Source: an uncultured Gemmatimonadota bacterium (GTDB taxonomy: Bacteria; JAAXHH01). From it: DNA of 64,000 nucleotides. Positions 49,008 through 64,000 of the stretch are shown one piece after another. Position 1 is the stretch's first letter; each line of letters opens with the position of its first letter. The position numbers and the translations under genes are program-made. The notes under the pieces are model-generated. The model searched no databases. It was not told the DNA's origin and saw nothing but the letters and a program-made list of their open reading frames with translations. The DNA is taken from NCBI GenBank assembly GCA_951812955.1, contig OX638340.1, positions 544,001-608,000 of the forward strand. Reading direction: 5' to 3'.

Positions 49008-52000
49008 TTACACCGCAGCCACGGGTTGTTCCACGGCGGTCCCGGTATCCGGGCCGCGCTCTTCCTCTGCCTCTCCGCCACCTCCACCACCCCGTTCCGC
49101 CCATCCCGATATGAAGTCATACATCACGGGAACCACGATCAGCGTCAGTACCGTGGCAATGGCCAGGCCGAAGATCACGGCCACCCCCATGGGCCCCCAC
49201 CACTGCGAGCTTTCTCCGCCGATTTCCAGGGTCAAAGTCCAGAAATTGAAACTCAACCCCGTGGTCAGGGGTATGAGCCCGAGAATCGTGGTAATTGCAG
49301 TCAACAAGACGGGGCGCAGACGGGTAACGCCTCCCTGGACGATCGCTTCCCGTTTGCGGAGTCCCCGGTTGCGCAGCTTTCGGATATAGTCGATCAGCAC
49401 GATAGCGTTGTTCACTACCACGCCCGCCAGGCTGATCACTCCGATGCCGGTCATGATGATTCCGAAAGGGGTCGCGGTAACAATCAATCCGAATAGGACG
49501 CCGATCAGCGAGAGCACCACGGACATCATGATGATGAGGGGCATGGTGACGGAATTGAACTGTGTGACGAGCACGAGCGTAATCAGGATCAGGGCGATGA
49601 GAAAGGCCTTGGATAAAAAGTCGGTGGCTTCGTCCTGCTCCACGTTTTCCCCGGTGTACCGCAGGCTGTATCCTTCTGGTAGCGACAGATCCGCGAGGGT
49701 AGTTTGCACGTCCTCGAGCACGTCGTTCGCCAGCCGGCCTTCCACGTCGCCCGCGATGGTCAGCACGCGTTCCTGGTCCTTCCGCTTGATGGATCCTACC
49801 CCGCCGGTCACGCGGGTCTGCGCCAGGGAACTGAGCGAGACCAGTTCGTCATCATGGATGATGTGGATTCTCTCCAGATCGGCGAATGTGGATCGCTCGG
49901 GTTCCGCGAACCGTACTATGATATCGTATTCTTCCTCCCCCACTCTGTATTTGGAGGCTTCCGTGCCATTGATGGCCGTACGCACCGCGCGGGCGATCTT
50001 GGCCGTGTTCAATTCAAGTAGCGCGGCCTGTTCTCTATCGATTTCCACCGTGAGTTCGGGCTTGCCCGAATCGTAATCGTCCTTGAGATCCACCAGGCCG
50101 GGTATATTCTCGATCATCAGCATGGCCTCGTCGGCAAGCCGGCCGAGCACGGAGAAATCCTCCCCGACGAATTCGATGTTTACGGGCGCCGCGGTGGGCG
50201 GTCCGGCCTGAGGCGTAATGATCTCCACGTCGGCGCCGATGAGACGTTCCATCCTTTGCCTGATCATTTCCACGGTCAGGAAAGAGGATTGCGTGCGGTC
50301 TTGCCGTTCGAAGAAGTCCACGATGATCCTGGACTTGTGCGGCGTACCGCCGCCTGCTGCGCTGAAGTCCTGTGGATTCGGCGATGCGCCTACGCTGGCG
50401 ACGTATTGTTTCATGTCCGGTACGTCCCGGATGTAATCCTCCGCCTGGCGTACGATATCATTTGATACGTCCAGCTTGGTGCCGATCGCAGAATTCACGT
50501 CGATATACGCCTGGTTGGGTTCGGTCTCGGGAAAGAACTCCACGCCCTTGCCGATCGCGGCGTAGAGTACGATCATTCCGAAGAGCGAGGCGCAGGTGAC
50601 CAGCATGACCACGGCCCTGTGCGCAAGCGCCCACATGAGAAACCGGCTGTAGCGGCGCCGCAGAACCATCAGCCAGCGTTGGTCCTCGCGTTTGCGGGTC
50701 ACACTGAGCAAAACCGAACAGACGGTAGGATTGATAATGAGACCGACGAACAGGGAAGCAGAGAGCGTGATGATCAGCGTGGCGGGCAGGTAGCTCATGA
50801 AATCACCGATTATGCCGGGCCAGAATAGCATGGGGGCGAAGGCGCACAACGTGGTCAGCGTGGAAGTGCACACCGGCACTGCCACCTCTCCCACGCCCTC
50901 TCGCGCGGCACGAACCAGGGGAGTTCCTTCCTCGCGGTGGCGATAAATGTTCTCGACTATGACGATGGCGTTATCCACGAGCATGCCCAGCGCCAGGATG
51001 AGGCTGAACAACACGACCATGTTCAGGGTGTAGCCGAGGATATCGAGTACGATGAAGGAGATCAGCATGGACAGCGGAATCGCAATAGCCACGAATAGTG
51101 CGTTGCGCACGCCCATGAACATGAACAGTACGCAGACCACCAGGATCAGCCCCGAGATGATGTTGTTCTCGAGGTCGCTGATCATGGACCTGATGTCCTT
51201 AGACTGGTCGGCCAGGACGGCCAGGTTGATGGTCTTCGGCAACCGTTCCCGTTCTTCGTCCAGCAATTCCTTCACGGCGTCGGCAATCTGTATCAGGTTC
51301 TCTCCGCTGCGTTTCTGCACATTCAGCGATACACACGGCAGTCCGTCCAGCCGCGCGTAGGTGGATACTTCCTTGAACCCGAACCGCACCTCCGCCACGT
51401 CCCCGATGGCGATAGGCTGACGATTGAAGGTCTTGATGACAAGCGCTCCGATCTCTTCCGGTGTCGTAAATTCGCCCGGCACCCTGACCGCGTATCTCAG
51501 CGTTCCGGTCTTGATCGAACCGCCGGGCATGTTGAGATTTTCCTGCCGGATCGTTTCGATGATATCCTCGAGTTCCAGCCCGTAATACACCATCCGATCC
51601 GGATCCACGTTGACCTGGACTTCCCTTTCCAACCCGCCCGCGACCGTAACGTCCAGTACGCCCGCGATCTGTTCGATCCGCTGTTCCAGGTCTTCCGCGA
51701 TATCCTTCAGCGTCACGAGGCTGTGCGTGCCGGCGACGTTGATCACCAGAATGGGGATATCGTCGAAGTTGATCTCCCGGATGGTTGATTCTTCCGCGTC
51801 GTCCGGGATCTCGGATCGCGCGAGGTCGACCTCTTCCCGCACCTTCTGGAGCGCGTTGTTGATGTCCACGTCGGTCTCGAATTCGATCACGACCGTCGAG
51901 ATGCCTTCACTGGAGGTCGAGGAGATCTCCTTCACGTTGGCAAGTTCTTCGAGGTGTTTCTCGAGCGGCTGGGTAACCAGGTTCTCTATGTCCGCTGGAG

Positions 52001-52163
52001 ACACCCCGAAATAGGGGGTGGCGACGAACACGATCGGTATGGTGATTGAAGGAGTGGATTCGCGCGGCAGCGAAAGGTAGGACATGAAACCGAGGAAGAT
52101 GACGGCCCCGGTCATGACGAAGATGCTGATTTTGTTTTTTATGGCGAGGTCAGAAACTCTCAA
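49008..52163 (-). CDS. RND (HAE1/AcrB-type) efflux transporter permease
   Basis: 1051 aa with 12 TM segments and two large periplasmic loops. Typical AcrB blocks. Confidence 0.95.
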   Translation of the reverse strand: MRVSDLAIKNKISIFVMTGAVIFLGFMSYLSLPRESTPSITIPIVFVATPYFGVSPADIENLVTQPLEKHLEELANVKEISSTSSEGISTVVIEFETDVDINNALQKVREEVDLARSEIPDDAEESTIREINFDDIPILVINVAGTHSLVTLKDIAEDLEQRIEQIAGVLDVTVAGGLEREVQVNVDPDRMVYYGLELEDIIETIRQENLNMPGGSIKTGTLRYAVRVPGEFTTPEEIGALVIKTFNRQPIAIGDVAEVRFGFKEVSTYARLDGLPCVSLNVQKRSGENLIQIADAVKELLDEERERLPKTINLAVLADQSKDIRSMISDLENNIISGLILVVCVLFMFMGVRNALFVAIAIPLSMLISFIVLDILGYTLNMVVLFSLILALGMLVDNAIVIVENIYRHREEGTPLVRAAREGVGEVAVPVCTSTLTTLCAFAPMLFWPGIIGDFMSYLPATLIITLSASLFVGLIINPTVCSVLLSVTRKREDQRWLMVLRRRYSRFLMWALAHRAVVMLVTCASLFGMIVLYAAIGKGVEFFPETEPNQAYIDVNSAIGTKLDVSNDIVRQAEDYIRDVPDMKQYVASVGASPNPQDFSAAGGGTPHKSRIIVDFFERQDRTQSSFLTVEMIRQRMERLIGADVEIITPQAGPPTAAPVNIEFVGEDFSVLGRLADEAMLMIENIPGLVDLKDDYDSGKPELTVEIDREQAALLELNTAKIARAVRTAINGTEASKYRVGEEEYDIIVRFAEPERSTFADLERIHIIHDDELVSLSSLAQTRVTGGVGSIKRKDQERVLTIAGDVEGRLANDVLEDVQTTLADLSLPEGYSLRYTGENVEQDEATDFLSKAFLIALILITLVLVTQFNSVTMPLIIMMSVVLSLIGVLFGLIVTATPFGIIMTGIGVISLAGVVVNNAIVLIDYIRKLRNRGLRKREAIVQGGVTRLRPVLLTAITTILGLIPLTTGLSFNFWTLTLEIGGESSQWWGPMGVAVIFGLAIATVLTLIVVPVMYDFISGWAERGGGGGGEAEEERGPDTGTAVEQPVAAV

Positions 52164-52208
52164 AGAATGACACTCCAGTGGATGCCGGTGGTGAATGCCG
52201 CCATCGCT

Positions 52209-53276
52209 TTACATTCTATCGTCTCTGACCTGAATGGACTCGCCGTTCACCAGGTTACGGTGGCCGACGACAATCAGGGTGTCACCGGCGGCCAGTCCAT
52301 CCGTTACAAGCACCTGGTCTCCCGAAATCGACCCCAGCGAAATCGGGACGGAACGTGCGACGCTTCCGTCCGCGACGAACACAATCCGGCCCTGATCGGT
52401 ATCGATCACCGCGTCCTGTGGAATGACGATCGCTTCCGGGATATAATCTTTGACGACGCGAATCGTTACGGCCATTTCAGGTTTCAGCAGGTGATCGGGG
52501 TTATCGAGCGTGATCTCAACCGGTACGGTGCGGCTGTCCGGATCCAGGGTCGTTCCGACGTAGGTTACGTCCGCCTCCACGCTGACGTCCGGATAGGCCG
52601 GAAACGCCAGTGCGGCGCGCGTGCCCACCGAGACGTGCTTCAGGTGGCGTTCAGGGACACCGGCCACGACTTTGACCCGGTCGATATCGACCACCTCCAC
52701 GAACTCCCGCCCTGGCGTGGCCAATTCACCCACCTCCATCATACGGCTGTCCACCACGCCGGAGATCGGCGACCGGATCACCGTTTTTCCCAGGTATGTC
52801 AGTGCCTGCTGGTGCCGCGCCCGGTCCATGTCGTTCCTGTACTGGGTGTCCAGGTACACGGATTCCGCAAGCGCCTTTTGTTCAAACAGTCTTTTCTGAT
52901 TGCGCAGGGCCAGGTCGCTGGCGTTAACCGCCGCTTCGGCTTCGTCCACCGCGGCTCTGAGCAACTCGTCGTCCAACCGCGCCAGTATGGTGTTCCGCGT
53001 AACCGATTCGCCTTTTTCAATCTCGATTTCCGTAATCAATCCGGTCGCTTCGATACTCACCACGACGCGCCGGGCCGGCTTGATCTCGCCCACGAGCCGG
53101 AGGTGATTGATGAATTCCCGAGGCTGGACGACCCGGGTCACCACATTCACGGCCCGCGTCTCCTTCACGGCGCCCGTATCGTTGGCGGCGCTGCCACTTT
53201 CACTGCAGCCCGCGGCCATCAGTACGCCTGCCAGGCATGCGGCCGAACCGAACCATTGCCAAACGCGGGTGATCAT
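52209..53276 (-). CDS. RND efflux periplasmic adaptor (membrane-fusion protein, lipoprotein)
   Basis: Lipobox MAAGCS. Biotinyl/lipoyl-like and beta-barrel domains of HlyD/AcrA. Confidence 0.9.
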   Translation of the reverse strand: MITRVWQWFGSAACLAGVLMAAGCSESGSAANDTGAVKETRAVNVVTRVVQPREFINHLRLVGEIKPARRVVVSIEATGLITEIEIEKGESVTRNTILARLDDELLRAAVDEAEAAVNASDLALRNQKRLFEQKALAESVYLDTQYRNDMDRARHQQALTYLGKTVIRSPISGVVDSRMMEVGELATPGREFVEVVDIDRVKVVAGVPERHLKHVSVGTRAALAFPAYPDVSVEADVTYVGTTLDPDSRTVPVEITLDNPDHLLKPEMAVTIRVVKDYIPEAIVIPQDAVIDTDQGRIVFVADGSVARSVPISLGSISGDQVLVTDGLAAGDTLIVVGHRNLVNGESIQVRDDRM

Positions 53277-54767: not shown

Positions 54768-56711
54768 TCACGCGTCCGCGTCCGTTCTCAGATCGACCCG
54801 GACCGGGTGGGCCAGCGCGATGAGATCTTCGATATCGAACGAGGCGAGCAGGCCGAAACAGAAGAGCGGCGACAGCGTTTCATACCGTCCCGGTTCATCG
54901 ATCAGCCGTTGAAGGCTTGCAAGTCCCCGGCGCAGCTCGATTTCTTCCACCGCGTGACTGCTCAGGGACGATGCCATGAGCGCGACTACAGAAGAAGCGG
55001 GACCCACGGCCGTCAAGCCGGACAGGGCTGCTGCCTCGTGATCCAAGACCGCCGCGAGCTGCGCGACCTGCAGCCCCAGCATCCTTTCGCCGCCCGATGA
55101 GAGCATCATCGTCCACTGATGCGGCGCCTTGCCCAGTTCACACGCGCCCTGCATGACCACTTCCACCACCATGGCCGCGTTCCCTTCCCGCAGGGCTTCC
55201 GCTACCGGGGCCGACGCGCCCCGGCTTCCGGCGTCCGTCAGGATCAGTCGCTTTTTCGCGTATTCCCGCGTCGATGGAACGGTGGTACGGACAGGAAGCA
55301 CCCAGCCGTCCCGCAAATGGCAATGGCTGTAAGTCGTTTGGCGGCCGTCGCCGGATTCCGATGCCTGCTTGATCATTTCTTCAACCGGGAAGGGCCGGTA
55401 ACGTAGAATGGATCTGAGCCGGTCCCGTCCCGCCTTCTGCCATCGGCGCATCGCGGCCGGTTCCCCTGGTGGCTTTACGCGTTTCAGCCCAAGCGCCTCG
55501 GACCGGGCCAGGGTAACGAAATCGGCGTTTCCAATCGGCGTTCCTACGGTCAGTTCTTCTTCGGAACGCACCTCGTCGGCCGAGGGGATCTCCTCGTCGC
55601 GGCCGCACGCGCCCGGCAGAAAATGCCGGTTCAGGAACCGGTAGAAACTCTCCCTGTGCTCCCGTTCGTAGTTGTGGGTGCCCGGGTCGATGTTGTTGTG
55701 GAATTCAAAGGCATCCTGCCTTCCGTACGACGCGTAAAGCGGCCGGACCGGTTCGTAGACGGATGGTCTGGCCCTGGCGGTCTGGAAGCAGCAGTCGTCA
55801 TATTCGTTATACAGCAGCAGGGCCGGGCGCGGCGCAAGCATGGCCGTGAGTACAGGATAATCGGCCGTGGAGGCGAGATCCGCGGCATTCTGTTCGATGT
55901 CGCCGCGGTCGGCCGGGTGTTTGATCCGGCTGTCCAGGCCGATGTAACCGGCATTGGGCGCGGCGAGACGCACCCGCGTGTCCAGGGCGGCCAGGATAAT
56001 CGTCTGCCATCCGCCGCCGGACAGTCCGGTCACGGCTATACGCTCCGGATCGACATGTTCCTGATTCAGCAGCACGTCCAGCGCTCGGCTCATGGCGAGG
56101 TAGAAAACGGCGATACCGGCAACTCCGCACAGGTCCAGGTAAGCTGCGTTGTTGTGCTGGTAGCCCGGTCCCTGCAACTCGCCGAACCCCAGCCACTCGG
56201 GGTTCAGCGCTACCATGCCCCGCTTGGCCAGGTTGATGCATCGTTCCTGCTTGTAGTCCACCGCTTTGCCCGGGGGACCGACATGCCCGTTCAGGTTCAG
56301 CACCCCCGGCGTTGTATCTCCTAAATCATCCGGTTCATAAAGCAGCGCCGGGATGACGAGACCGGGCTGACCGGGCCAACCGGGCCGACCAGTACTGGCA
56401 GGACTACCGGGCAACGCGTGGTAGGTCAGCTTGCGGATCCGGTATCCTTTGCCGGTCTCGATCACGTCTTTCCACTCGACACGGAGCGCTCCCTCTCGCC
56501 ATTCGTCGGGAACGCCCTTGAAAATAACCTCCTCCAGCATGGTCCGACGCATCTTCGCGGCTTCTGCGTCCCAGGTATTCGCATCTGGAAGCCTGAAACC
56601 GGGAATACGGCCCAGCATATAAGTTCGGAGGGTCTCCATGGCATCGGGTTCACTGCGTGACGGCGATGGCCGCATTACCGCCCTGTCGTCATCCCGATCC
56701 GTTTCATTCAT
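54768..56711 (-). CDS. alpha/beta-hydrolase fold protein (esterase/peptidase-like, 647 aa)
   Basis: Nucleophile elbow GLSGGG. 8-bp overlap with the upstream transglutaminase-like gene. Collagen-like PGWPGQPGL tract. Confidence 0.55.
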   Translation of the reverse strand: MNETDRDDDRAVMRPSPSRSEPDAMETLRTYMLGRIPGFRLPDANTWDAEAAKMRRTMLEEVIFKGVPDEWREGALRVEWKDVIETGKGYRIRKLTYHALPGSPASTGRPGWPGQPGLVIPALLYEPDDLGDTTPGVLNLNGHVGPPGKAVDYKQERCINLAKRGMVALNPEWLGFGELQGPGYQHNNAAYLDLCGVAGIAVFYLAMSRALDVLLNQEHVDPERIAVTGLSGGGWQTIILAALDTRVRLAAPNAGYIGLDSRIKHPADRGDIEQNAADLASTADYPVLTAMLAPRPALLLYNEYDDCCFQTARARPSVYEPVRPLYASYGRQDAFEFHNNIDPGTHNYEREHRESFYRFLNRHFLPGACGRDEEIPSADEVRSEEELTVGTPIGNADFVTLARSEALGLKRVKPPGEPAAMRRWQKAGRDRLRSILRYRPFPVEEMIKQASESGDGRQTTYSHCHLRDGWVLPVRTTVPSTREYAKKRLILTDAGSRGASAPVAEALREGNAAMVVEVVMQGACELGKAPHQWTMMLSSGGERMLGLQVAQLAAVLDHEAAALSGLTAVGPASSVVALMASSLSSHAVEEIELRRGLASLQRLIDEPGRYETLSPLFCFGLLASFDIEDLIALAHPVRVDLRTDADA

Positions 56712-57621
56712 CGGCGCGTCTCCTCTCGACCGGATTGCGCCGTATCGGGTTATTTTCCGAAAGAGGCCGCATGGTCACAGCTACTTCGATCTCGATCTCA
56801 CCACCGCCCTGCAACACGCCGTGCGTGGGAGAAACGTCCCTGTAATCTCTACCCACGGCCACGCGCACATACCGCTCATCGACCAGGGTTGCATTCGTGG
56901 GATCGAATGCGGTCCAGCCGAGTTCGGGCAACTGGCACTCCACCCAGGCGTGCGTGGTCGTCATTCCATCTCCGCTGACTTCCGCTGCAACGTCATGGAG
57001 ATAGCCGGATACGTACCGGGCGGGTATGCCCCAGGTACGCGCGATGGCGATCATGACGTGGGCGTAATCCTGGCAGACGCCGCGTCCGCTATCCAGTATA
57101 TGTTCAATTGTCGAGGAAAACGTAGTGGTTCCAGGATCATAGTGGAAGCGATCGTACAGCGTGGCCGAAAGCCGCCCCAACGCGTTCAGCGGGTCGTCCG
57201 TGGGCTTGATCCCGTTCTCTCGAACGAAGCGTTCAAGGACTGATGAAGGCCTGGCCAGGGCGCTATGGTCCAGAAAAACCCGATGATGAAACGAGTTGCG
57301 CCAACCCCTGATGGTCGCCCATGCCTCGTCTTCTATACGCTCCGAAGATGATTCGCAAGGAGTCACATCGACCGTGGATCGTGCCGTGATTACCAGTGAC
57401 CGGTGTTCGCGGTACAGGTGAAACTGGTGCCTGGTATTTCCGAAACTGTCCTCGACTTGAAAGAGCGATCCGGTCGGCTCCGTATCGATCCGGAAACCAG
57501 ATACGCGCTGTCTGCGGTCTTCCGTCGGTTTCAAAGCCAGCGACATCGCGCAGTTGCGCACGGGAATGCCGTAGCGGTATTTCGTGACGTGTTCGAGTTC
57601 GTAACGTACGTTTCCGACCAT
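56704..57621 (-). CDS. transglutaminase-like cysteine protease superfamily protein (N-terminal bacterial TG domain plus TGc core)
   Basis: TGc core GVCQDYAHVMIAIARTWGIPARYVSGY with catalytic Cys. Downstream His and Asp. Confidence 0.85.
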   Translation of the reverse strand: MVGNVRYELEHVTKYRYGIPVRNCAMSLALKPTEDRRQRVSGFRIDTEPTGSLFQVEDSFGNTRHQFHLYREHRSLVITARSTVDVTPCESSSERIEDEAWATIRGWRNSFHHRVFLDHSALARPSSVLERFVRENGIKPTDDPLNALGRLSATLYDRFHYDPGTTTFSSTIEHILDSGRGVCQDYAHVMIAIARTWGIPARYVSGYLHDVAAEVSGDGMTTTHAWVECQLPELGWTAFDPTNATLVDERYVRVAVGRDYRDVSPTHGVLQGGGEIEIEVAVTMRPLSENNPIRRNPVERRRADE

Positions 57622-57625
57622 GGCG

Positions 57626-58594
57626 TCAGTGAGCCGGTAGAATCTCCAGCGGGTAGTCTATGTATGCGTCTATGACAAGGTGATGGAGTTTTTTGCTGTC
57701 GGCATGTACCCGGTCGAGTACCGGTTGCCATACCGCTACGTCGTTCCGGCGTGCCGTTACGCATTTGCACAGCGTGTCGCCCAGTCCAAGCGCTTCCCGG
57801 CTCGAATTCGGCGCCGGACCGTGGCCTATGGCGCGCAAAACTTCGGCGGCCGAATCGACGGAACGGCGGATCGAAGCAGGAAGCAGGCCATCTGTTACGA
57901 GCAGATCCAGCACCTGGCCGGGCTGGACCACCACGCTGTAGGTATGCACGTAGGCGTCGAATGCGTGAAACGCGTGCAGCAGGTTCGCCCAGTCCGCGTC
58001 GAAGGATTCGTCCTGCCGGCCGTGATCGGCGATCTGCGCGAGCATGACCGCGGCGGAGAGCTGCACCCTTTCGATATATCTACCCAGCTGAATGAAATGC
58101 CAGCCTTCGTCGCGGTACATGGTGGCGTCGGTCACGCCGGCAAACGTGTTGATTTCCACTGAAGTGCCGGCGTAAAACGACTCGGGGGTCGTCTTCCAGA
58201 TTTCCTGGATGTTCAGCTTCTGCAGGTGCAGATAGGCCGTGTTTAATGAAAGCCACATCTCCGCGCTGATGTAGTTGCGGACCTGCCTGGCGTTTTCCCT
58301 TGCGTACACGAAACAATTCCAGATGGAATCCGGATTCGTGGGCTCGAAGGTAAGATGGTCGGCAAGGGTGTACGAATCAGCGAGTGTGTAGTCATCACTG
58401 CGGAAGGCTTCAAGTGTGCCCGCGGGCGGCGCCTGGTTCATGCTGCGGTAAACCCGGTTCCAGCCGAAGTGGATTTCCCTCAGCGGACGATCCACGAGCG
58501 TTTCCACCTGCAGTTGCATCAAACGACACAGGTGCGCCGCACGTTCCAGGTATCTCCCCATCCAATAAAGACCTTGAGCGCTTCTGGACAGCAT
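57626..58594 (-). CDS. alpha-E domain protein (DUF403)
   Basis: N-terminus LSRSAQGLYWMGRYLERAAHLCRL is the canonical alpha-E start. Confidence 0.85.
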   Translation of the reverse strand: MLSRSAQGLYWMGRYLERAAHLCRLMQLQVETLVDRPLREIHFGWNRVYRSMNQAPPAGTLEAFRSDDYTLADSYTLADHLTFEPTNPDSIWNCFVYARENARQVRNYISAEMWLSLNTAYLHLQKLNIQEIWKTTPESFYAGTSVEINTFAGVTDATMYRDEGWHFIQLGRYIERVQLSAAVMLAQIADHGRQDESFDADWANLLHAFHAFDAYVHTYSVVVQPGQVLDLLVTDGLLPASIRRSVDSAAEVLRAIGHGPAPNSSREALGLGDTLCKCVTARRNDVAVWQPVLDRVHADSKKLHHLVIDAYIDYPLEILPAH

Positions 58595-60028
58595 TTAATC
58601 TCCCAGGACCCAGATGTCTTTGCCTCCCCCGCCCTGGCTGGAGTTCACGACGAGACTTCCCTCACGCAGCGCCACACGGCAGAATGCCCCCGGGACGATG
58701 CGCGTCTCGCGTCCGTGCAGGACAAAAGGGCGCAGGTCCACGTGTCGCGCCGCGGCGCGGCCCTCGATCATGCAGGGAGCGCGTGAAAGGTCGAGCACGG
58801 GTTGCGCAATGAAATCGGCCGGATTTTCCAGGATCTCGCGGATGTAGGCATCCCGCACCGCAGAGGTCGATCGGGGACCGACCAGCATGCCATAGCCCCC
58901 GGACTCGCCCACCCTTTTAACGATGAGATCCTCCAGATTGTCCAGCGTGTATTCCAGGTCTTCCTCCCTCCGGCAGATGTAGGTTTTTACGTTCATAAGC
59001 AGCGGTTCTTCGCCCAGATAGTAACGTATCATGTCCGGAACGTAGGCGTACACGCTCTTGTCGTCTGCAACCCCCGTGCCCGGTGCATTCGCCAGGGTAA
59101 CGTTTCCGGCCCGATAGACTCCCATCAGCCCGGGAAGTCCCAGCAGAGAGTCCGGACGGAAAACCAAAGGGTCAAGGAAGTCGTCGTCCACCCGCCGGTA
59201 TATGACGTCCACCTTGCGCAGGCCCGACGTGGTGCGCATGTACACGTAACCCCCGTTGACAAGCAGGTCCCGGCCTTCTACCAGGGTCGCACCGATCTCT
59301 TCGGCCAGGTAAATATGTTCGTAGAACGCCGAATTGTATACGCCAGGCGTCAGCAAAACCACGCACGGATCGGGATCTTCCCGGGGTGCGAGTTCCTTCA
59401 GGATTTCACGAAGCAGGCGGCCGTAGTGCTCGACCTCCTGTACCCGGCAACTGCGATAAAGCCTTCGAAGATTGGCCTTCACCGCCTTCCGGTTGGCGAC
59501 CATGTAGGACACGCCGGAGGGCACACGGAGGTTGTCCTCGAGGACGTGGAACCCCTCGTTCGTGCGCACCAGATCCGTTCCACAGACGGCGACATACGTG
59601 CCGTGGGGGACGTTTATGCCCCGCATTTCCACGCGATACTGGGGACAACCGTGCACCATGTCGACGGGAATGACCCCGTCCTCGACGATACGGGCTGATC
59701 CGTAGATGTCGGCCAGGAAAAGGTTCAGGGCTTTCAGGCGCTGGGTAAGTCCGGCTTCGAGTTGCCGCCATTCCCCGGCTGTGATAAGACGGGGTAGACA
59801 GTCGACCGGCATAATTCGTTCATTGGCCTCATCGCCGCCGTAGACTGTAAACGTGATGCCTTCGCTGGAAAAGGAATGGGTGACCCTTTCCTGCATGCGA
59901 ACGAGTTCTTCAACAGGAAGCCTGAGCAGGGAATCGTAGAGCGTACGGCAGTGATCACGGGGGTTGCCGTCGGGCTGGAACATCTCGTCGTAGAAAGCGC
60001 TGTCGATTTCGTAATCTTCAAAGTCCAT
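58595..60028 (-). CDS. circularly permuted type-2 ATP-grasp protein
   Basis: 477 aa, CP_ATPgrasp_2 architecture. AGGAG Shine-Dalgarno sequence. Its stop abuts the alpha-E start. Confidence 0.85.
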   Translation of the reverse strand: MDFEDYEIDSAFYDEMFQPDGNPRDHCRTLYDSLLRLPVEELVRMQERVTHSFSSEGITFTVYGGDEANERIMPVDCLPRLITAGEWRQLEAGLTQRLKALNLFLADIYGSARIVEDGVIPVDMVHGCPQYRVEMRGINVPHGTYVAVCGTDLVRTNEGFHVLEDNLRVPSGVSYMVANRKAVKANLRRLYRSCRVQEVEHYGRLLREILKELAPREDPDPCVVLLTPGVYNSAFYEHIYLAEEIGATLVEGRDLLVNGGYVYMRTTSGLRKVDVIYRRVDDDFLDPLVFRPDSLLGLPGLMGVYRAGNVTLANAPGTGVADDKSVYAYVPDMIRYYLGEEPLLMNVKTYICRREEDLEYTLDNLEDLIVKRVGESGGYGMLVGPRSTSAVRDAYIREILENPADFIAQPVLDLSRAPCMIEGRAAARHVDLRPFVLHGRETRIVPGAFCRVALREGSLVVNSSQGGGGKDIWVLGD

Positions 60029-60099
60029 AACGAGGGTCTCCTATCTTTGGACCAGCGAGATCCTTGTCCTGGAACGGCAGGATATTTCGGGCTCAAAGG

Positions 60100-60451
60100 C
60101 GCCCTTCATACCTTGCTCATGCATTTATCACATCTTTCTCATGCTTTCTACTGCATAAGCATGTTATATGTGGTCATGCAATAGATCAAGCGAAGTTCTG
60201 AATCATCGCGATGCCGGCCAGACACGCAGAATTGATCCTGCACATTTGGAGAATTTCCAAACATTTTCAATACTGAAGTAAATTGAAACATTTTCATTGC
60301 GCTTTCCCTGTGCAGGGGTATTTTGCGTTTTAGTTCGAGTTAGCCAGCCGGTTTTCGTCACAGAATAGACAATTCAACAACCTCAAATTGCTACGCTTTA
60401 ATGTAATATGTTGATAACCGCGGGTTTATCCATCGTGCGGGAGGCGGACGA
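60100..60451. promoter_or_regulatory. AT-rich divergent control region with recurring TCATGC / ATGCA(T) elements
   Basis: CTCATGCATTT, CTCATGCTTTC, CTGCATAAGCATG and GTCATGCAAT lie within about 60115-60180. Strongly AT-rich against 65%-GC surroundings. Confidence 0.35.
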
Positions 60452-62788
60452 ATGGTAATGGAGTTTGGCAATATCCTTACCGCTTACTTCGATTTCATCT
60501 GGATGTCGTTCCTGCTTCTGGGTCCGATGTTGATGCTGGGTCTGCTGCTTTCGGGCCTGATCCACGTTTTCATCTCCCGGGAAGCGATACTCAGATGGCT
60601 TCAGGACGACAGCCTTCGCTCGGTCTCAATCAGTTCCGCCGTAGGCGTTCCGGTACCGCTCTGCAGCTGTTCCGTCGTTCCCGTAGTTGCCGAAATGCGA
60701 CGAAAGGGGGCTTCCCGCTCATCCTGCATGGCCTTCCTGATTACGGCGCCTGAAACCGGGGCCGACTCCATCCTCGTCACGAACGCTTTTTTCGGCTTCA
60801 TCGCCGCCGTTGTGCGACCTGTCATCAGTTTTATCACAGCCGTCGTGGCGGGTATTTTCTGCATCGGCCTGATCCGGGACGATAGTGGCGAGGCCAAGCC
60901 GGAGGAGGAAGACCACGGACACGCCCACCACGACCATGACCACGGTCACGACCATGGACATGACCACGATCATGACCACGATCACTCGGTCCACGATCCG
61001 CTGCTGTCGGACAAGGATGACTGCTATGTAAGCCCCTCCGCCATGAAGATCCTCATGACGAAGTGGATCAAGGGGTTGACTACCGTGGCGTCCACCTGGA
61101 GGTTCGGATCGTGGATCAAACCGGAATTCTACCGGGAGATCATCGGAGAGCAACCGGCGAAATCCGCGAATCGGACCGAACTGGATGAGGTGGAAGAAAA
61201 ATACCCCGGGCTCGATTTCAAGAAGATCGTCAAGCATATCTTCCACTACGGCTTTGTCGAGATCGCCGATGATATACTCTTCGCGCTGCTCGTCGGTATC
61301 GCGCTGGGCGGCGTGCTGTTCCTGGTCATACCGGCCGACCTGATGTCCAACGAATACGCACGCTGGCTTTCCTACCCCGTAATGATCATCGTCGGCGTGC
61401 CCCTTTACATCTGCGCCTCCGCCAGCACGCCGATTGCCGCCGCGCTGGTCGCCCGGGGCGTCAGTCCAGGGGCCGCCCTGATATTCCTGATGACAGGCCC
61501 CGCGACCAACACAAGCACCATCGCCATCATCATGAGTCAGTTCGGCGCGCGTTTCGCGGCCGTATACGTCACGTCAGTCATCGCGGTCACCGCGGTGATC
61601 GGCATAGCCATCGATTTCATACTGGTGGCCACCGGGTTTGCCATTTCCGTCAACCTGTTGCCTTCCGATTCCCCCACGCTTCAAATTCTGCAGTGGGGCG
61701 GCGCGCTCGGGCTGATCGCGCTTATCGTCTGGAGGTACCGCGCCGGCGCCATGCGCAGCGGTTACGAAGACCTCATGCTCAACATCCGACCCTTCTCCCG
61801 GCCATGGCGGAACACGTGGAAGCGGCTGACCCGTGACCGGTCGTTCCGGGGTACGATTTCACCCACCACACCCATGGGCATGATGCTGTGGGGCTTGCTG
61901 CTGGTCCTCTTTCTTGGCAGCGGGTTCACGGCCGTGCCGCCGGGTCACGTCGGATACGGCCGGTTGTTCGGCGAGGTATACTGGAAAGACCTTCAGCCCG
62001 GGCTTCATTACCTGGCGCCGCGCCCCCTCGTCCAGGTCGACAAGTGGCCAGTCAGGGAAGTAAAATCAATTATGTCCGAGACACCGTACGAGTACGTGTC
62101 GGGCGACCTGAACATGCTCACGCTCACCCTGGACGTCCAGTACCGGGTAAACGACCCGTACACGTATCACTACCGTACGGTCGATCCGGAAGAGATCATC
62201 GAAGACGCGGTGCGCGAGCACGTTCGTACTTTTGTCAACGCACGTGACCTGGATCGGCTCCTCACTGCATACCGGGCGGAACTGGAAGATGAGCTGACGA
62301 ATCTCTTCGTGACGGATGCCCGGATGCACGGCGACAAGTCGGTGCTTGGCACCGTCGACCTCGTGAAGGTCAGCCTGCTGAACGTCACCCCGGCGGCGGA
62401 AGCCCTGAGTTCCTTCCGGGAGATTTCAAGCGCCCAGGAAGACAGGGAAAGAATCATCGTCAACGCGCAACGGTTCATGGTGTCCCTGGTGCCGCGCGCT
62501 CACGGCAATGCCGAGTATGAGAAAGAACAGGCCGATGGAGAGGCATTTCGCAAGGTGGCGACCTCCGCGGCGGAAGCGGATGCCATTATGGTCATTTCTT
62601 CTGCCATGCAGACGGCGCCGGAAGTCCTGCGGAACATGCTGTGGCGGGAAAAGTTGGAATCCGCTCTCGCCGGCAATCCCAAGATTATCGTGCCCAACAG
62701 ACAGAGTTTCAACAAGGTCGCGATCTGGAAAAAGAGGCCGGCGGAAGCCGCCGCCCCATCCGCCAAGACAGGAGGTAAAGGCAAATGA
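60452..62788 (+). CDS. fusion protein: ArsP/DUF318-family CxC permease with His/Asp-rich loop, fused in frame to an HflK-like SPFH (band-7) domain
   Basis: N-terminal half has about 8 TM segments, the PLCSCSVVP motif and the loop HGHAHHDHDHGHDHGHDHDHDHDH. After a linker, TM MGMMLWGLLLVLFLGSGF is followed by the HflK-type block VPPGHVGYGRLFGE...PGLHYLAPRP. There is no stop codon or Shine-Dalgarno sequence between the halves. Confidence 0.75.
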   Translation: MVMEFGNILTAYFDFIWMSFLLLGPMLMLGLLLSGLIHVFISREAILRWLQDDSLRSVSISSAVGVPVPLCSCSVVPVVAEMRRKGASRSSCMAFLITAPETGADSILVTNAFFGFIAAVVRPVISFITAVVAGIFCIGLIRDDSGEAKPEEEDHGHAHHDHDHGHDHGHDHDHDHDHSVHDPLLSDKDDCYVSPSAMKILMTKWIKGLTTVASTWRFGSWIKPEFYREIIGEQPAKSANRTELDEVEEKYPGLDFKKIVKHIFHYGFVEIADDILFALLVGIALGGVLFLVIPADLMSNEYARWLSYPVMIIVGVPLYICASASTPIAAALVARGVSPGAALIFLMTGPATNTSTIAIIMSQFGARFAAVYVTSVIAVTAVIGIAIDFILVATGFAISVNLLPSDSPTLQILQWGGALGLIALIVWRYRAGAMRSGYEDLMLNIRPFSRPWRNTWKRLTRDRSFRGTISPTTPMGMMLWGLLLVLFLGSGFTAVPPGHVGYGRLFGEVYWKDLQPGLHYLAPRPLVQVDKWPVREVKSIMSETPYEYVSGDLNMLTLTLDVQYRVNDPYTYHYRTVDPEEIIEDAVREHVRTFVNARDLDRLLTAYRAELEDELTNLFVTDARMHGDKSVLGTVDLVKVSLLNVTPAAEALSSFREISSAQEDRERIIVNAQRFMVSLVPRAHGNAEYEKEQADGEAFRKVATSAAEADAIMVISSAMQTAPEVLRNMLWREKLESALAGNPKIIVPNRQSFNKVAIWKKRPAEAAAPSAKTGGKGK
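60911..60998 (+). repeat. codon-level GACCAC/GACCAT repeat encoding a (H-D/H-G)n tract
   Basis: gaccacggacacgcccaccacgaccatgaccacggtcacgaccatggacatgaccacgatcatgaccacgatcac. Confidence 0.85.
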
Positions 62789-63678
62789 CCGGTAAGGGAC
62801 GTGGCATCCGAACGGCCATCGTCGCGCTCGTGCTGGCGGCGATCGTTTACGACTGTTTCTATGTGATCAACGAAACCCAGCAGGGGGTCCTGACGAACTT
62901 CGGCCGGATTTCGCCTCCGGTGAAGCAGCCCGGACTACATGTCAAGTGGCCCCGACCGATTTCAAGAGTCTACAAGGTGGACCGGAGGCTGCAGACACTC
63001 ACCGACGTGTCCCATGAGTTGATTACCGAAGATCAGAAGAACATCCTGATCAGCGGCTACCTGCTCTGGCGCATCGTAGACCCAATCCTGTATGTCGAGG
63101 CGATACGCACGGGCGCCAATGCAGCCGAACGTCTGCGGGATCTCTACCTTTCGAGCAGTGGGATCGTGATCAGTAACAAGGCCCGTGATGCATTCATCAG
63201 CCTTGGGCTGGAACACGAAGACCTGCACGAAGCGGCCCGTGACATCCTGAGCAGTGTCGCCCCGATTGCCAGTACCAACTATGGTATCGAGGTGCTGAAA
63301 GCCGGTATCATCGAATACACGCTGCCCATGGAAAACCGCCCGGCCGTGATCCAGCGTATGATATCGGAGCGCGCGCGCATCGCGGCCCGGTACCGCAGCG
63401 AGGGCGAGGAGATGGCCATCCGCATCGAAGCGCTGGCAATAAACGAACATGAGAAGCTTATGGCGGAGGCGCACGCGGAAGCCACGGCCATACTCGGTGA
63501 GGCCGAAGCGGAAGCGATGGCTTTGCTGGGCAGGGCTTACCGGAGGGACCCGGCGTTCTACCGGTTCATCCGGGCCCTTGACAGTTATGATCTGATTATC
63601 GACAAAAACACGACCCTTATGTTGCCGGCCGACAACGAACTGTTCAGATACCTGGACAGCAGAACGGTTCCCAGGTAG
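62785..63678 (+). CDS. HflC-like SPFH/band-7 protein
   Basis: N-terminal TM, then QQGVLTNFGRISPPVKQPGLHVKWPRPISRVYKVDRRLQTL (HflC-type block). GGAGG Shine-Dalgarno sequence. ATGA overlap with the upstream gene. Confidence 0.85.
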   Translation: MTGKGRGIRTAIVALVLAAIVYDCFYVINETQQGVLTNFGRISPPVKQPGLHVKWPRPISRVYKVDRRLQTLTDVSHELITEDQKNILISGYLLWRIVDPILYVEAIRTGANAAERLRDLYLSSSGIVISNKARDAFISLGLEHEDLHEAARDILSSVAPIASTNYGIEVLKAGIIEYTLPMENRPAVIQRMISERARIAARYRSEGEEMAIRIEALAINEHEKLMAEAHAEATAILGEAEAEAMALLGRAYRRDPAFYRFIRALDSYDLIIDKNTTLMLPADNELFRYLDSRTVPR

Positions 63679-63695
63679 AGCGAGATCTCAAACCC

Positions 63696-64000
63696 ATGAC
63701 GAACGAAAAGCGACCTTTACCTTACAGCACGCGCGTAATCTATGCCATGTTCGATTGGGCGCGCACCTACGGCTGGAACCGGCTGTTCTGGAGCGTGATC
63801 GCCTTTTCCATCGTGGCCGTGCTGGCCAGCGGGTTTTATATCATAAAGAAAGAAGAGCAGGGCGTCCTCGTTCGTTTCGGCAAGGTGGTGGACGAGAACC
63901 TTGGTCCGGGCATTCATTACTGCGTTCCGTTCATATACGAAACCCACATACGCAAGGTGAAGCGCATCGTCCGTGTCTCTATCGTCAGCGAAGGGACGGC
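63696..64000 (+). CDS. second HflK-like SPFH protein (5' part only, runs off the window)
   Basis: Cytoplasmic N-terminus, TM FWSVIAFSIVAVLASGFYII, then EEQGVLVRFGKVVDENLGPGIHYCVPFIYETH. Confidence 0.7.
   Translation, partial: MTNEKRPLPYSTRVIYAMFDWARTYGWNRLFWSVIAFSIVAVLASGFYIIKKEEQGVLVRFGKVVDENLGPGIHYCVPFIYETHIRKVKRIVRVSIVSEGT

Follow-up and report, generated by a model that had tools for sequence, protein, structure and literature searches.

Introduction

The HflK and HflC subunits of the HflK/HflC-FtsH complex of Escherichia coli (PDB codes: 7VHP, 7WI3, 9CZ1/2) are SPFH proteins encoded by two adjacent, translationally coupled genes, while SO_0444 of Shewanella oneidensis (Q8EJL9, TC 2.A.119.1.6), for which Cu/Zn efflux has been proposed, is a single-domain permease of ~350 amino acids (AAs), whose operon also encodes a ZntR-like regulator. 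Here we describe a gene in which both types of protein are joined. It lies near the end of a 64,000-nucleotide stretch of DNA from an uncultured Gemmatimonadota bacterium (GCA_951812955.1, contig OX638340.1, positions 544,001 to 608,000 of the forward strand), the whole of which is called the window below. The gene encodes an SO_0444/ArsP-type permease that continues into an HflK-like SPFH subunit (permease::SPFH-A, the fusion), and it is followed by an HflC-like gene (SPFH-B) and a second HflK-like gene (SPFH-C).

Like SO_0444, the permease half has a CxC motif, a central loop rich in His and an additional transmembrane (TM) helix at its C-terminus; unlike SO_0444, it continues into an SPFH subunit and belongs to a five-gene module, beside which no MerR-type regulator was seen. 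SO_0444 is needed for growth under ZnSO4 or CuCl2 stress, an annotation confirmed by complementation (PMC3219624); this fitness study in Shewanella is the sole genetics found for the permease family. In Nitratiruptor, expression of a gene of the SO_0444 family rises upon exposure to Cd and Cu (PMC10092412).

With E. coli HflK/HflC the module shares the order of an N-terminal TM helix, an SPFH fold, a long and a short helix and terminal strands, as well as the adjacency and translational coupling of the genes and probably the periplasmic orientation. However, the module has three paralogues instead of two, in the order K-like, C-like, K-like, and one of them bears a whole transporter at its N-terminus; it adds a binding protein and a 3-TM protein, it lacks both the hfq-hflX context and a nearby ftsH, and its two HflK-like paralogues remain under the equivalog cut-off.

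Three SPFH genes lie together in Pseudomonas aeruginosa, where PA2437-PA2439, adjacent to the P-type ATPase HmtA, are 9-14-fold induced by zinc depletion (PMC4542158, PMC11761036) and have a candidate Zur site nearby (PMC9431628). A 2026 study, in which they are called PaFlo7/6/5, describes a single operon of likely horizontal origin and connects it with neither zinc nor a transporter (PMC13086221). The PA2437-2438-2439 operon (HflC-family, HflC, HflK-family) resembles the trio studied here in its three SPFH genes and the metal ATPase beside them, as far as a comparison by published description only can tell; unlike the fusion module, it is not associated with a permease in these papers. SPFH oligomers with a specific membrane partner, stomatin with aquaporin-1 (9ZD2) and QmcA with YbbJ (SPFH-NfeD, 8Z5G), were among the fold matches; the partners of stomatin and QmcA are separate polypeptides, whereas the client of the fusion is covalently joined to a scaffold subunit.

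No paper on an SPFH fusion of the ArsP type or of the cation diffusion facilitator (CDF) type was found in the literature, and a survey of the SPFH proteins of prokaryotes from 2009 is silent on permeases. This agrees with an earlier, sequence-only reading of the window, which did not recognize the architecture as described; the fusion is, however, not a one-off, since it belongs to a large fused family and has a parallel among CDF transporters. While the families of the parts are known, three features appear not to have been described before: the covalent link of transporter and scaffold, the module of three paralogues with fixed partners, and its CDF parallel.

Results

The permease::SPFH-A fusion

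A 778-codon open reading frame (ORF) runs without interruption over positions 60452-62788 (+) of the window. Its parts are as follows.

60452..62788, + strand: fusion gene permease::SPFH-A, 778 AAs, SO_0444/ArsP-type permease plus HflK-like SPFH subunit
60452..61741, + strand: permease domain, residues 1-430, two homologous repeats and an extra TM helix (408-430)
60656..60682, + strand: PLCSCSVVP (residues 69-77), located where the first helix-break-helix unit is interrupted
60911..60997, + strand: run rich in His and Asp (residues 154-182) within the central loop of the permease
61400..61432, + strand: PLYICASASTP (residues 317-327), located where the second helix-break-helix unit is interrupted, the repeat-2 counterpart of the CxC motif
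61742..61870, + strand: Arg/Lys-rich linker, residues 431-473, with 11 Lys/Arg, conserved and predicted to be helical
61871..61918, + strand: helix that anchors the SPFH part in the membrane, residues 474-489, counterpart of the single N-terminal TM helix of HflK
61919..62785, + strand: HflK-like ectodomain SPFH-A, residues 490-778

Pfam places ArsP_1 (PF03773) at residues 24-388 (E 1.3e-43; 149.7 bits against a gathering score of 32.3) and Band_7/SPFH (PF01145) at residues 495-671 (E 8e-13). Among the NCBIfam models, NF033936 (SO_0444, Cu/Zn efflux) covers residues 19-426 (model positions 4-348 of 351) with 314 bits against a cut-off of 300, a margin of 14 bits only, and in size the protein departs from the SO_0444 family (single-domain, ~350 AAs), as it has 778 AAs and a C-terminal HflK-like domain. 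The hflK model TIGR01933 aligns with residues 510-752 at 124.4 bits, which is under its equivalog cut-off of 159.4; the alignment with HflK itself begins at the anchor helix. Pfam and NCBIfam thus agree with the one uninterrupted permease-HflK-like gene that had been read from the letters beforehand, and its C-terminal half does match the SPFH and HflK models, albeit the latter below cut-off.

The CxC motif and a 24-residue His/Asp loop, both picked out in the sequence-only reading, are found at residues 69-77 and H155-H178, respectively. P69, C71, S72, C73 and P77 are invariant across 49 sequences with identities down to 31%, and PLCSCSVVP is likely the metal site of the permease, as predicted from this conservation. 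Directly after the His/Asp run there is a conserved H-x-H-x-x-H...DDCY stretch, in which H176, H178, H181, D190, C191 and Y192 are invariant (alignment A1), while the length of the run differs between relatives. In the second repeat, Y319, C321, A322, S323, A324, S325, T326 and P327 are invariant (alignment A5).

The fusion is real and is constrained over its whole length, including the linker. All of the 120 best protein clusters (59-97% identity), which stem from many independent assemblies, are fused over the full length (740-890 AAs, save two cut fragments of ~590 AAs), and nearly all of them carry both Pfam domains. In a genome scan limited to one genome per species, 283 relatives were matched; the best 80 of them are the 80 loci referred to below, in which the reading frame through the junction is kept with the sole exception of L050. 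The linker residues W427, R428, G432, A433, G437, D440 and N444 are invariant (alignment A1). The sequence-only reading had advised a check for a frameshift at the junction, and these clusters, loci and linker residues exclude one. In L050 (11330-11340) a TGA replaces the conserved linker Trp codon TGG, and SPFH-B is gone from the same copy, hence we rejected this locus as a natural split version. A second decayed copy (L022:10001-11947) consists of a truncated 648-AA fusion directly followed by ZIP and P1B ATPase genes. As regards unfused permeases, the nearest one that could be placed (P0175) has no SPFH neighbor, and a further candidate (P0162) was discarded, its gene being cut by a contig end.

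Predicted structure and topology

The fusion monomer was modeled by AlphaFold using an alignment of 49 sequences, relatives with identities of 31-46% among them (mean predicted local distance difference test, pLDDT, 78); a model from a 24-sequence alignment (pLDDT 51) was set aside. In the model, each permease repeat comprises a long TM helix, a helix-break-helix unit with arms of 10-18 residues, a 26-residue broken helix and a long helix. The arms are too short for a single membrane crossing, and an unwound segment (residues 65-71) is found at the first break. With the Cys motifs at the two helix breaks, the permease may have an ion-transporter-like, hairpin-containing fold; the reference for this comparison was the elevator fold of the ion-transporter superfamily (AbgT, ArsB, CNT, DASS and TRAP-DctM), with its inverted repeats and re-entrant helical hairpins. 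The His/Asp loop has a pLDDT below 50 and is therefore probably disordered. In the model of SPFH-A, the SPFH fold leads into a helix of 73 residues (649-721), after which come another helix (723-738) and two strands at the C-terminus; the fold, the long helix and the C-terminal segment make up the architecture of the cage-forming SPFH proteins (HflK/C, prohibitin, stomatin, flotillin and erlin).

Three membrane crossings per repeat would result from taking the first break unit for a hairpin. This layout puts the N-terminus outside and the SPFH domain in the periplasm; on the cytoplasmic side it has the His/Asp loop, the linker with its 11 Lys/Arg and two Lys/Arg-bearing loops (41-54 and 83-89), with at least 18 Lys/Arg inside and ~2 outside. 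The linker is thus most likely cytoplasmic according to the model, and the SPFH domain would be periplasmic. HflK/C are oriented toward the periplasm, and a periplasmic SPFH-A would agree with this orientation, with the charged N-termini of SPFH-B and SPFH-C (N-in) and with the signal peptide of the binding protein encoded downstream.

SPFH-B, SPFH-C and the five-gene module

Two further SPFH genes follow the fusion gene in the window.

62785..63678, + strand: SPFH-B, HflC-like, 297 AAs, its ATG overlapping the TGA of the fusion gene (ATGA)
63696..64000, + strand: SPFH-C, second HflK-like gene, start ATG at 63696, first 101 codons, the gene running past the window end

An AGGAGG lies at 62770-62775, ten bases before the SPFH-B start, and, judging by the ATGA overlap, the fusion gene and SPFH-B are translationally coupled. 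SPFH-B passes the equivalog cut-off of the hflC model TIGR01932 (158.7 bits against 134.4) and has E. coli HflC (7vhp_G) as its closest solved structure (E 7e-34), whereas the closest solved structure of both SPFH-A (E 2.4e-17) and SPFH-C (E 1.3e-30) is E. coli HflK. The copy of SPFH-C in L003, where the DNA is 96.5% identical over this stretch, has 445 AAs and scores 158.3 bits on TIGR01933, 1 bit short of the 159.4 cut-off. SPFH-B and SPFH-C therefore appear HflC-like and HflK-like, respectively, in accordance with how the two genes had been named at the outset. The fusion protein itself is 97% identical to the copies in L003 (OY762445.1) and L007 (Gemmatimonadetes APA_bin_41).

Beyond its HflK-like core, SPFH-C carries a C-terminal motif with four conserved His, H..E..D.D...DGQFH....ERDH......RSLIFDTPSIFSH.H (alignment A6; residues ~350-400 of L003:13272-14606), and then a variable acidic/basic tail. 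A role of this motif in metal binding or as a plug of the cage is conceivable.

Five genes recur in one order and on a single strand in 74 of the 80 loci: permease::SPFH-A, SPFH-B (~297 AAs), SPFH-C (~445 AAs), a binding protein and a 162-AA protein. The remaining six comprise four loci cut by contig ends and the two decayed ones (L050, L022). The fourth gene encodes a type-I periplasmic binding protein (Peripla_BP_6, ~390-405 AAs) with a signal peptide, and the fifth a protein with three TM helices and without a Pfam family, which has a mean column identity of 67%, EEWLRE near its N-terminus and KEAHGAE..GLK.FVDGE in a predicted cytoplasmic loop. The window covers only the first three genes, the third one incompletely, and the fourth and fifth are known from relatives. 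Hence the unit that the sequence-only reading had delimited, a permease joined to HflK, then HflC and a second HflK, was correctly seen as far as it goes but is larger. A PADLOC scan of the five module proteins for anti-phage defence systems yielded no matches.

A HAMP-HisKA sensor kinase and a second Peripla_BP_6 protein are encoded on the opposite strand, downstream of the P1B ATPase, in L001 (19599-22340, −) and at the same place in L003-L009. This second Peripla_BP_6 protein is weakly similar to the binding protein of the module, and the kinase/binding protein pair may sense the same ligand.

The wider family and its distribution

The 80 loci are spread over at least 10 phyla or classes. 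A HMMER scan of 1.84 billion cluster representatives gave 1100 matches at E<=1e-30; about 100 of the best 150 representatives have 650-940 AAs, 25-47% identity and an alignment that spans both halves. By profile search, the wider fused family comprises 1586 clusters at E<=1e-20. In all of six distant loci (31-36% identity) the fused gene is followed by two further Band_7 genes, which are orthologues of SPFH-B and SPFH-C, in this order, in 6/6 (phmmer). The fused A/B/C trio must be old, since it is kept in such distant relatives. The 162-AA protein is present in three of the six (E 1e-25 to 1e-36), each time alongside a type-I binding protein (Peripla_BP_4 in two, Peripla_BP_6 in one), so the binding-protein slot is filled by different families.

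All of the best 80 genome matches (L003-L082) are metagenome-assembled genomes, affiliated with Gemmatimonadota, Latescibacterota, Arenicellales, Dadabacteria, Nitrospinota, Bryobacterales, Poriferihabitaceae and Opitutales, which are typical marine-sponge and coral symbiont groups; bin or study names (APA, RHO, ROBB21, PANK22) indicate sponge projects. More distant members of the fusion family come from other sets of metagenome-assembled genomes. Protein identities of 55-72% across phyla suggest that the module has spread horizontally within host-associated communities. No ArsP-type fusion was found in a search of PLSDB plasmids. A GPP34 (Golgi phosphoprotein 3) plus cytochrome P450 gene lies near the module in L039 (17489-19462, −) and has homologues in 10 loci; GPP34 has been reported as a family tied to sponge symbiosis (PMC11706023), which agrees with the habitat deduced above.

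A parallel CDF::SPFH family

The best match in PLSDB is a conjugative plasmid of Aquibium oceanicum (NZ_CP018172.1, L091 5287-8932) on which the genes are annotated hflK-hflC-hflK. In the first "HflK" (WP_072608301.1, 515 AAs), a complete CDF membrane domain (PF01545, E 4.5e-25; TIGR01297, 90 bits against 82) continues into an HflK-like domain, and the SPFH parts of the three proteins match SPFH-A, SPFH-B and SPFH-C, respectively, as orthologues. This architecture is found in at least 120 clusters, among them Chloroflexi, Rhizobium sp. AN80A and Kouleothrix aurantiaca and including some cultured strains; where these proteins are named (NCBI, JGI), the name is "FtsH protease activity modulator HflK".

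As in the ArsP-type module, the membrane domain of a metal transporter precedes SPFH-A, but here the CDF TM domain (PF01545) replaces ArsP_1, and the accessory gene is a prolyl isomerase instead of the binding protein and the 3-TM protein: in 3/3 CDF loci (L091, L094, L095) the trio is followed by a gene for a large PpiD/SurA-like periplasmic prolyl isomerase. A heavy-metal P-type ATPase comes after the module on the Aquibium plasmid. Two unrelated families of metal transporters have thus been joined to the same scaffold subunit, and nothing else argues as strongly for a joint function of transporter and scaffold.

Metal transporter genes near the module

At least one recognizable metal transporter is encoded within 10 kb of the module in 72 of the 80 loci. 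The families counted are as follows.

ZIP: 47/80 loci within 10 kb, usually directly after the module
ZnuC-like ATPase: 26/80 loci within 10 kb
ZnuA: 18/80 loci within 10 kb
TonB-dependent receptor: 12/80 loci within 10 kb
Cu-type P1B ATPase: 9/80 loci within 10 kb

In addition, CusA/CzcA-family heavy-metal RND pumps are found within 10 kb in about 26 of the 80 loci; three that were checked score 1071-1221 bits against a cut-off of 701, and in Latescibacterota loci the pump is encoded directly upstream of the module and co-directionally with it. In the clade of the window, Cu-type P1B ATPases come after the module. ZnuABC genes adjoin the module in three of the six distant loci (L084, L085 and L088), in L088 directly after it and in the same direction. 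Together with the SO_0444 model, which the permease passes, this neighborhood upholds the association with metals put forward in the sequence-only reading. In the window itself, an RND pump (1051 AAs, 49008-52163) and an adaptor (355 AAs) are encoded at 49008-53276 (−). Neither hfq nor hflX was among the classified neighbor families, those of gammaproteobacterial loci included.

The upstream region

60029..60451, + strand: AT-rich region between the fusion gene and a divergent ATP-grasp operon, upstream of both

In this region the GC content drops to 0.44-0.50. It holds a candidate promoter, TTGCGC (60297-60302) and TATTTT (60319-60324) separated by a 16 nt spacer, and the blocks TTCATTGCGC and GGGTATTTTG, which are conserved among close relatives. 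A scan of the window for the sigma-70 consensus upstream of the fusion gene gave no match, and this upstream region contains no inverted repeats and matches nothing in Rfam. Apart from clade-specific promoter blocks, the 86 upstream regions compared have no 9-mer in common. Further conserved blocks lie at 60120-60210 (alignment A3), with CTCATGC repeated and a CATGTTATAT(A)TG element followed by AATAGATCAAGCGAAG; the CTCATGC-bearing blocks sit closer to the divergent ATP-grasp gene than to the fusion gene.

A Latescibacterota/Gemmatimonadota subclade (L018, L020, L029, L030, L032, L033 and L065) has a TTGACT-17-TATCAT promoter 100-190 nt before the fusion start. Its leader is conserved, with a CGCC..GGCG hairpin, ends in ATGCACTGGAGG and has no match in Rfam; it could be a leader or regulatory RNA.

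The divergent operon (56704-60028, −) consists of three genes, for a circularly permuted ATP-grasp protein (477 AAs), an Alpha-E protein (322 AAs) and a transglutaminase-like protein (305 AAs). Its synteny is limited to close relatives, and it is probably unrelated to the module.

Discussion

A proposed dedicated scaffold for a metal transporter

We propose that the module encodes a dedicated periplasmic assembly of the HflK/C type, composed of three paralogues, one of which carries a metal transporter, and that this assembly serves Zn/Cu homeostasis; we put the probability of this reading at about 0.5. The family of the permease and the neighboring genes point to a divalent metal as the probable substrate, most likely zinc and perhaps copper. 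SPFH-A, SPFH-B and SPFH-C would co-assemble at the periplasmic face of the inner membrane into a ring or cage of the HflK/C type, in which SPFH-B would alternate with either SPFH-A or SPFH-C. Such an alternation would make the transporter a built-in client, placed at or inside the enclosed membrane patch, and the ratio of A to C would set the number of transporters per assembly. The scaffold would localize, stabilize or gate metal transport, and it might couple transport to neighboring systems that face the periplasm.

Several observations weigh against this proposal. The substrate and the direction of transport rest on one fitness study of an unfused 350-AA relative, and the permease passes the corresponding model by 14 bits. 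The structure prediction is of a monomer of the fusion only, and the topology hinges on the two helix-break-helix units being re-entrant hairpins; a hydropathy-based 4+4(+1) scheme (PMC7176098), which we consider less likely for the permease of the fusion, would bring the His/Asp loop to the side of the SPFH domain. The RND pump in the clade of the window is a generic one and not of the CusA/CzcA type (452 bits against a cut-off of 701). The likeness to PA2437-2439 comes from published descriptions, so that orthology, or a transporter domain in PA2437, would be conjectural. Finally, the neighborhood mixes uptake genes (ZnuABC, ZIP, TonB-dependent receptors) and efflux genes (CzcA-type RND, P1B), and as both kinds cluster with the module, its physiological role is ambiguous between efflux and acquisition.

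Alternative explanations

The module might instead serve zinc acquisition under Zur and be induced by shortage, either with the permease as an importer or with the scaffold and the binding protein working for ZnuABC or ZIP. We regard this as a tentative alternative on the unlikely side. ZIP (47/80), ZnuA (18/80) and TonB-dependent receptor genes (12/80) accompany the module, ZnuABC lies beside it in L084 and L085 and co-directionally after it in L088, and the three-SPFH operon of P. aeruginosa, a possible counterpart of the trio, is induced by zinc depletion near a candidate Zur site and lies by the importer HmtA. On the other hand, the genetics of the permease family point to efflux, CusA/CzcA-type RND pumps are present in about 26 loci, Cu-type P1B ATPases follow the module in the clade of the window, and no Zur-like box is shared by the upstream regions across loci.

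Somewhat less probable is a link with FtsH, in which the trio would recruit or gate the protease for quality control or turnover, and the tethered permease would be degraded or spared according to metal status. This is compatible with the assembly that we propose, and it builds on the best-established role of HflK/C, the association with FtsH by which they modulate membrane-protein proteolysis (PMC12048511); SPFH-B passes the HflC model, SPFH-C is 1 bit short of the HflK model, and the prolyl isomerase, a folding factor, that follows the CDF-type trio hints at quality control. However, no ftsH is found within 6-10 kb of 88 ArsP-type and 3 CDF-type loci, SPFH-A reaches 124 bits against the 159 cut-off, and a permanent tether to the substrate would be an odd design for turnover. 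P. aeruginosa, moreover, has a canonical hflKC besides its three-SPFH operon (PMC13086221), and because the canonical pair is kept, three-SPFH trios would be extra systems there. The protease-supervised efflux suggested in the sequence-only reading is therefore not borne out: its link to FtsH comes from HflK/C homology only, no ftsH accompanies the loci, and both HflK-like paralogues are below cut-off.

Organoarsenical efflux by an ArsP proper with an accessory scaffold is very improbable: the N-terminal half does fall in ArsP_1 of Pfam and its vicinal-Cys motif is like that of ArsP, but its best NCBIfam model is SO_0444 and not an arsenical family, the His/Asp loop is typical of divalent-cation transporters, and zinc and heavy-metal genes, instead of any ars gene, are found among the recurrent neighbor families (80 loci, 10 kb) and the Pfam calls of seven gene-called loci. 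Least of all do we credit an assembly or sequencing artefact that joined two genes by a frameshift or a lost stop codon: a relative with the halves as separate ORFs exists (L050), but that split is a point change in a copy also missing SPFH-B, the linker is conserved elsewhere, and the fusion recurs in the 120 best clusters and, in the wider family, in 1586; these derive from numerous assemblies, made with many sequencing technologies and including closed chromosomes.

Implications

The assembly that we propose can be extended to a heteromeric cage around the tethered transporter, which would form a confined compartment of membrane and periplasm for Zn/Cu trafficking. The binding protein and the His tail of SPFH-C would be inside this compartment, the A:C ratio would fix the number of transporters per cage, and the transporter module (ArsP/SO_0444 or CDF) would be interchangeable in evolution. 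We put this extension forward as a speculation that is probably wrong in at least this full form. If true, it would be a new principle, scaffold-encoded compartmentalization of ion transport in bacteria, and the first SPFH cage with a client fixed by a peptide bond.

Current names conceal the architecture: more than 1000 ArsP-type fusions, where named at all, are called just "SO_0444 family Cu/Zn efflux transporter", and the CDF-type ones are called "HflK". The module may also help to explain why P. aeruginosa has a zinc-regulated operon of three SPFH genes.

The cages of SPFH proteins (HflK/C, prohibitins, flotillins, stomatin and erlins) were recently solved by cryo-electron microscopy, and what they enclose and how they affect a client are largely open questions. 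In the fusion, the client is known in advance, because the transporter is part of the scaffold subunit. It comes with a defined set of partners, two more paralogues, a binding protein and a small membrane protein, and the design is repeated with the CDF family; the question of enclosure is directly testable through such a fusion.

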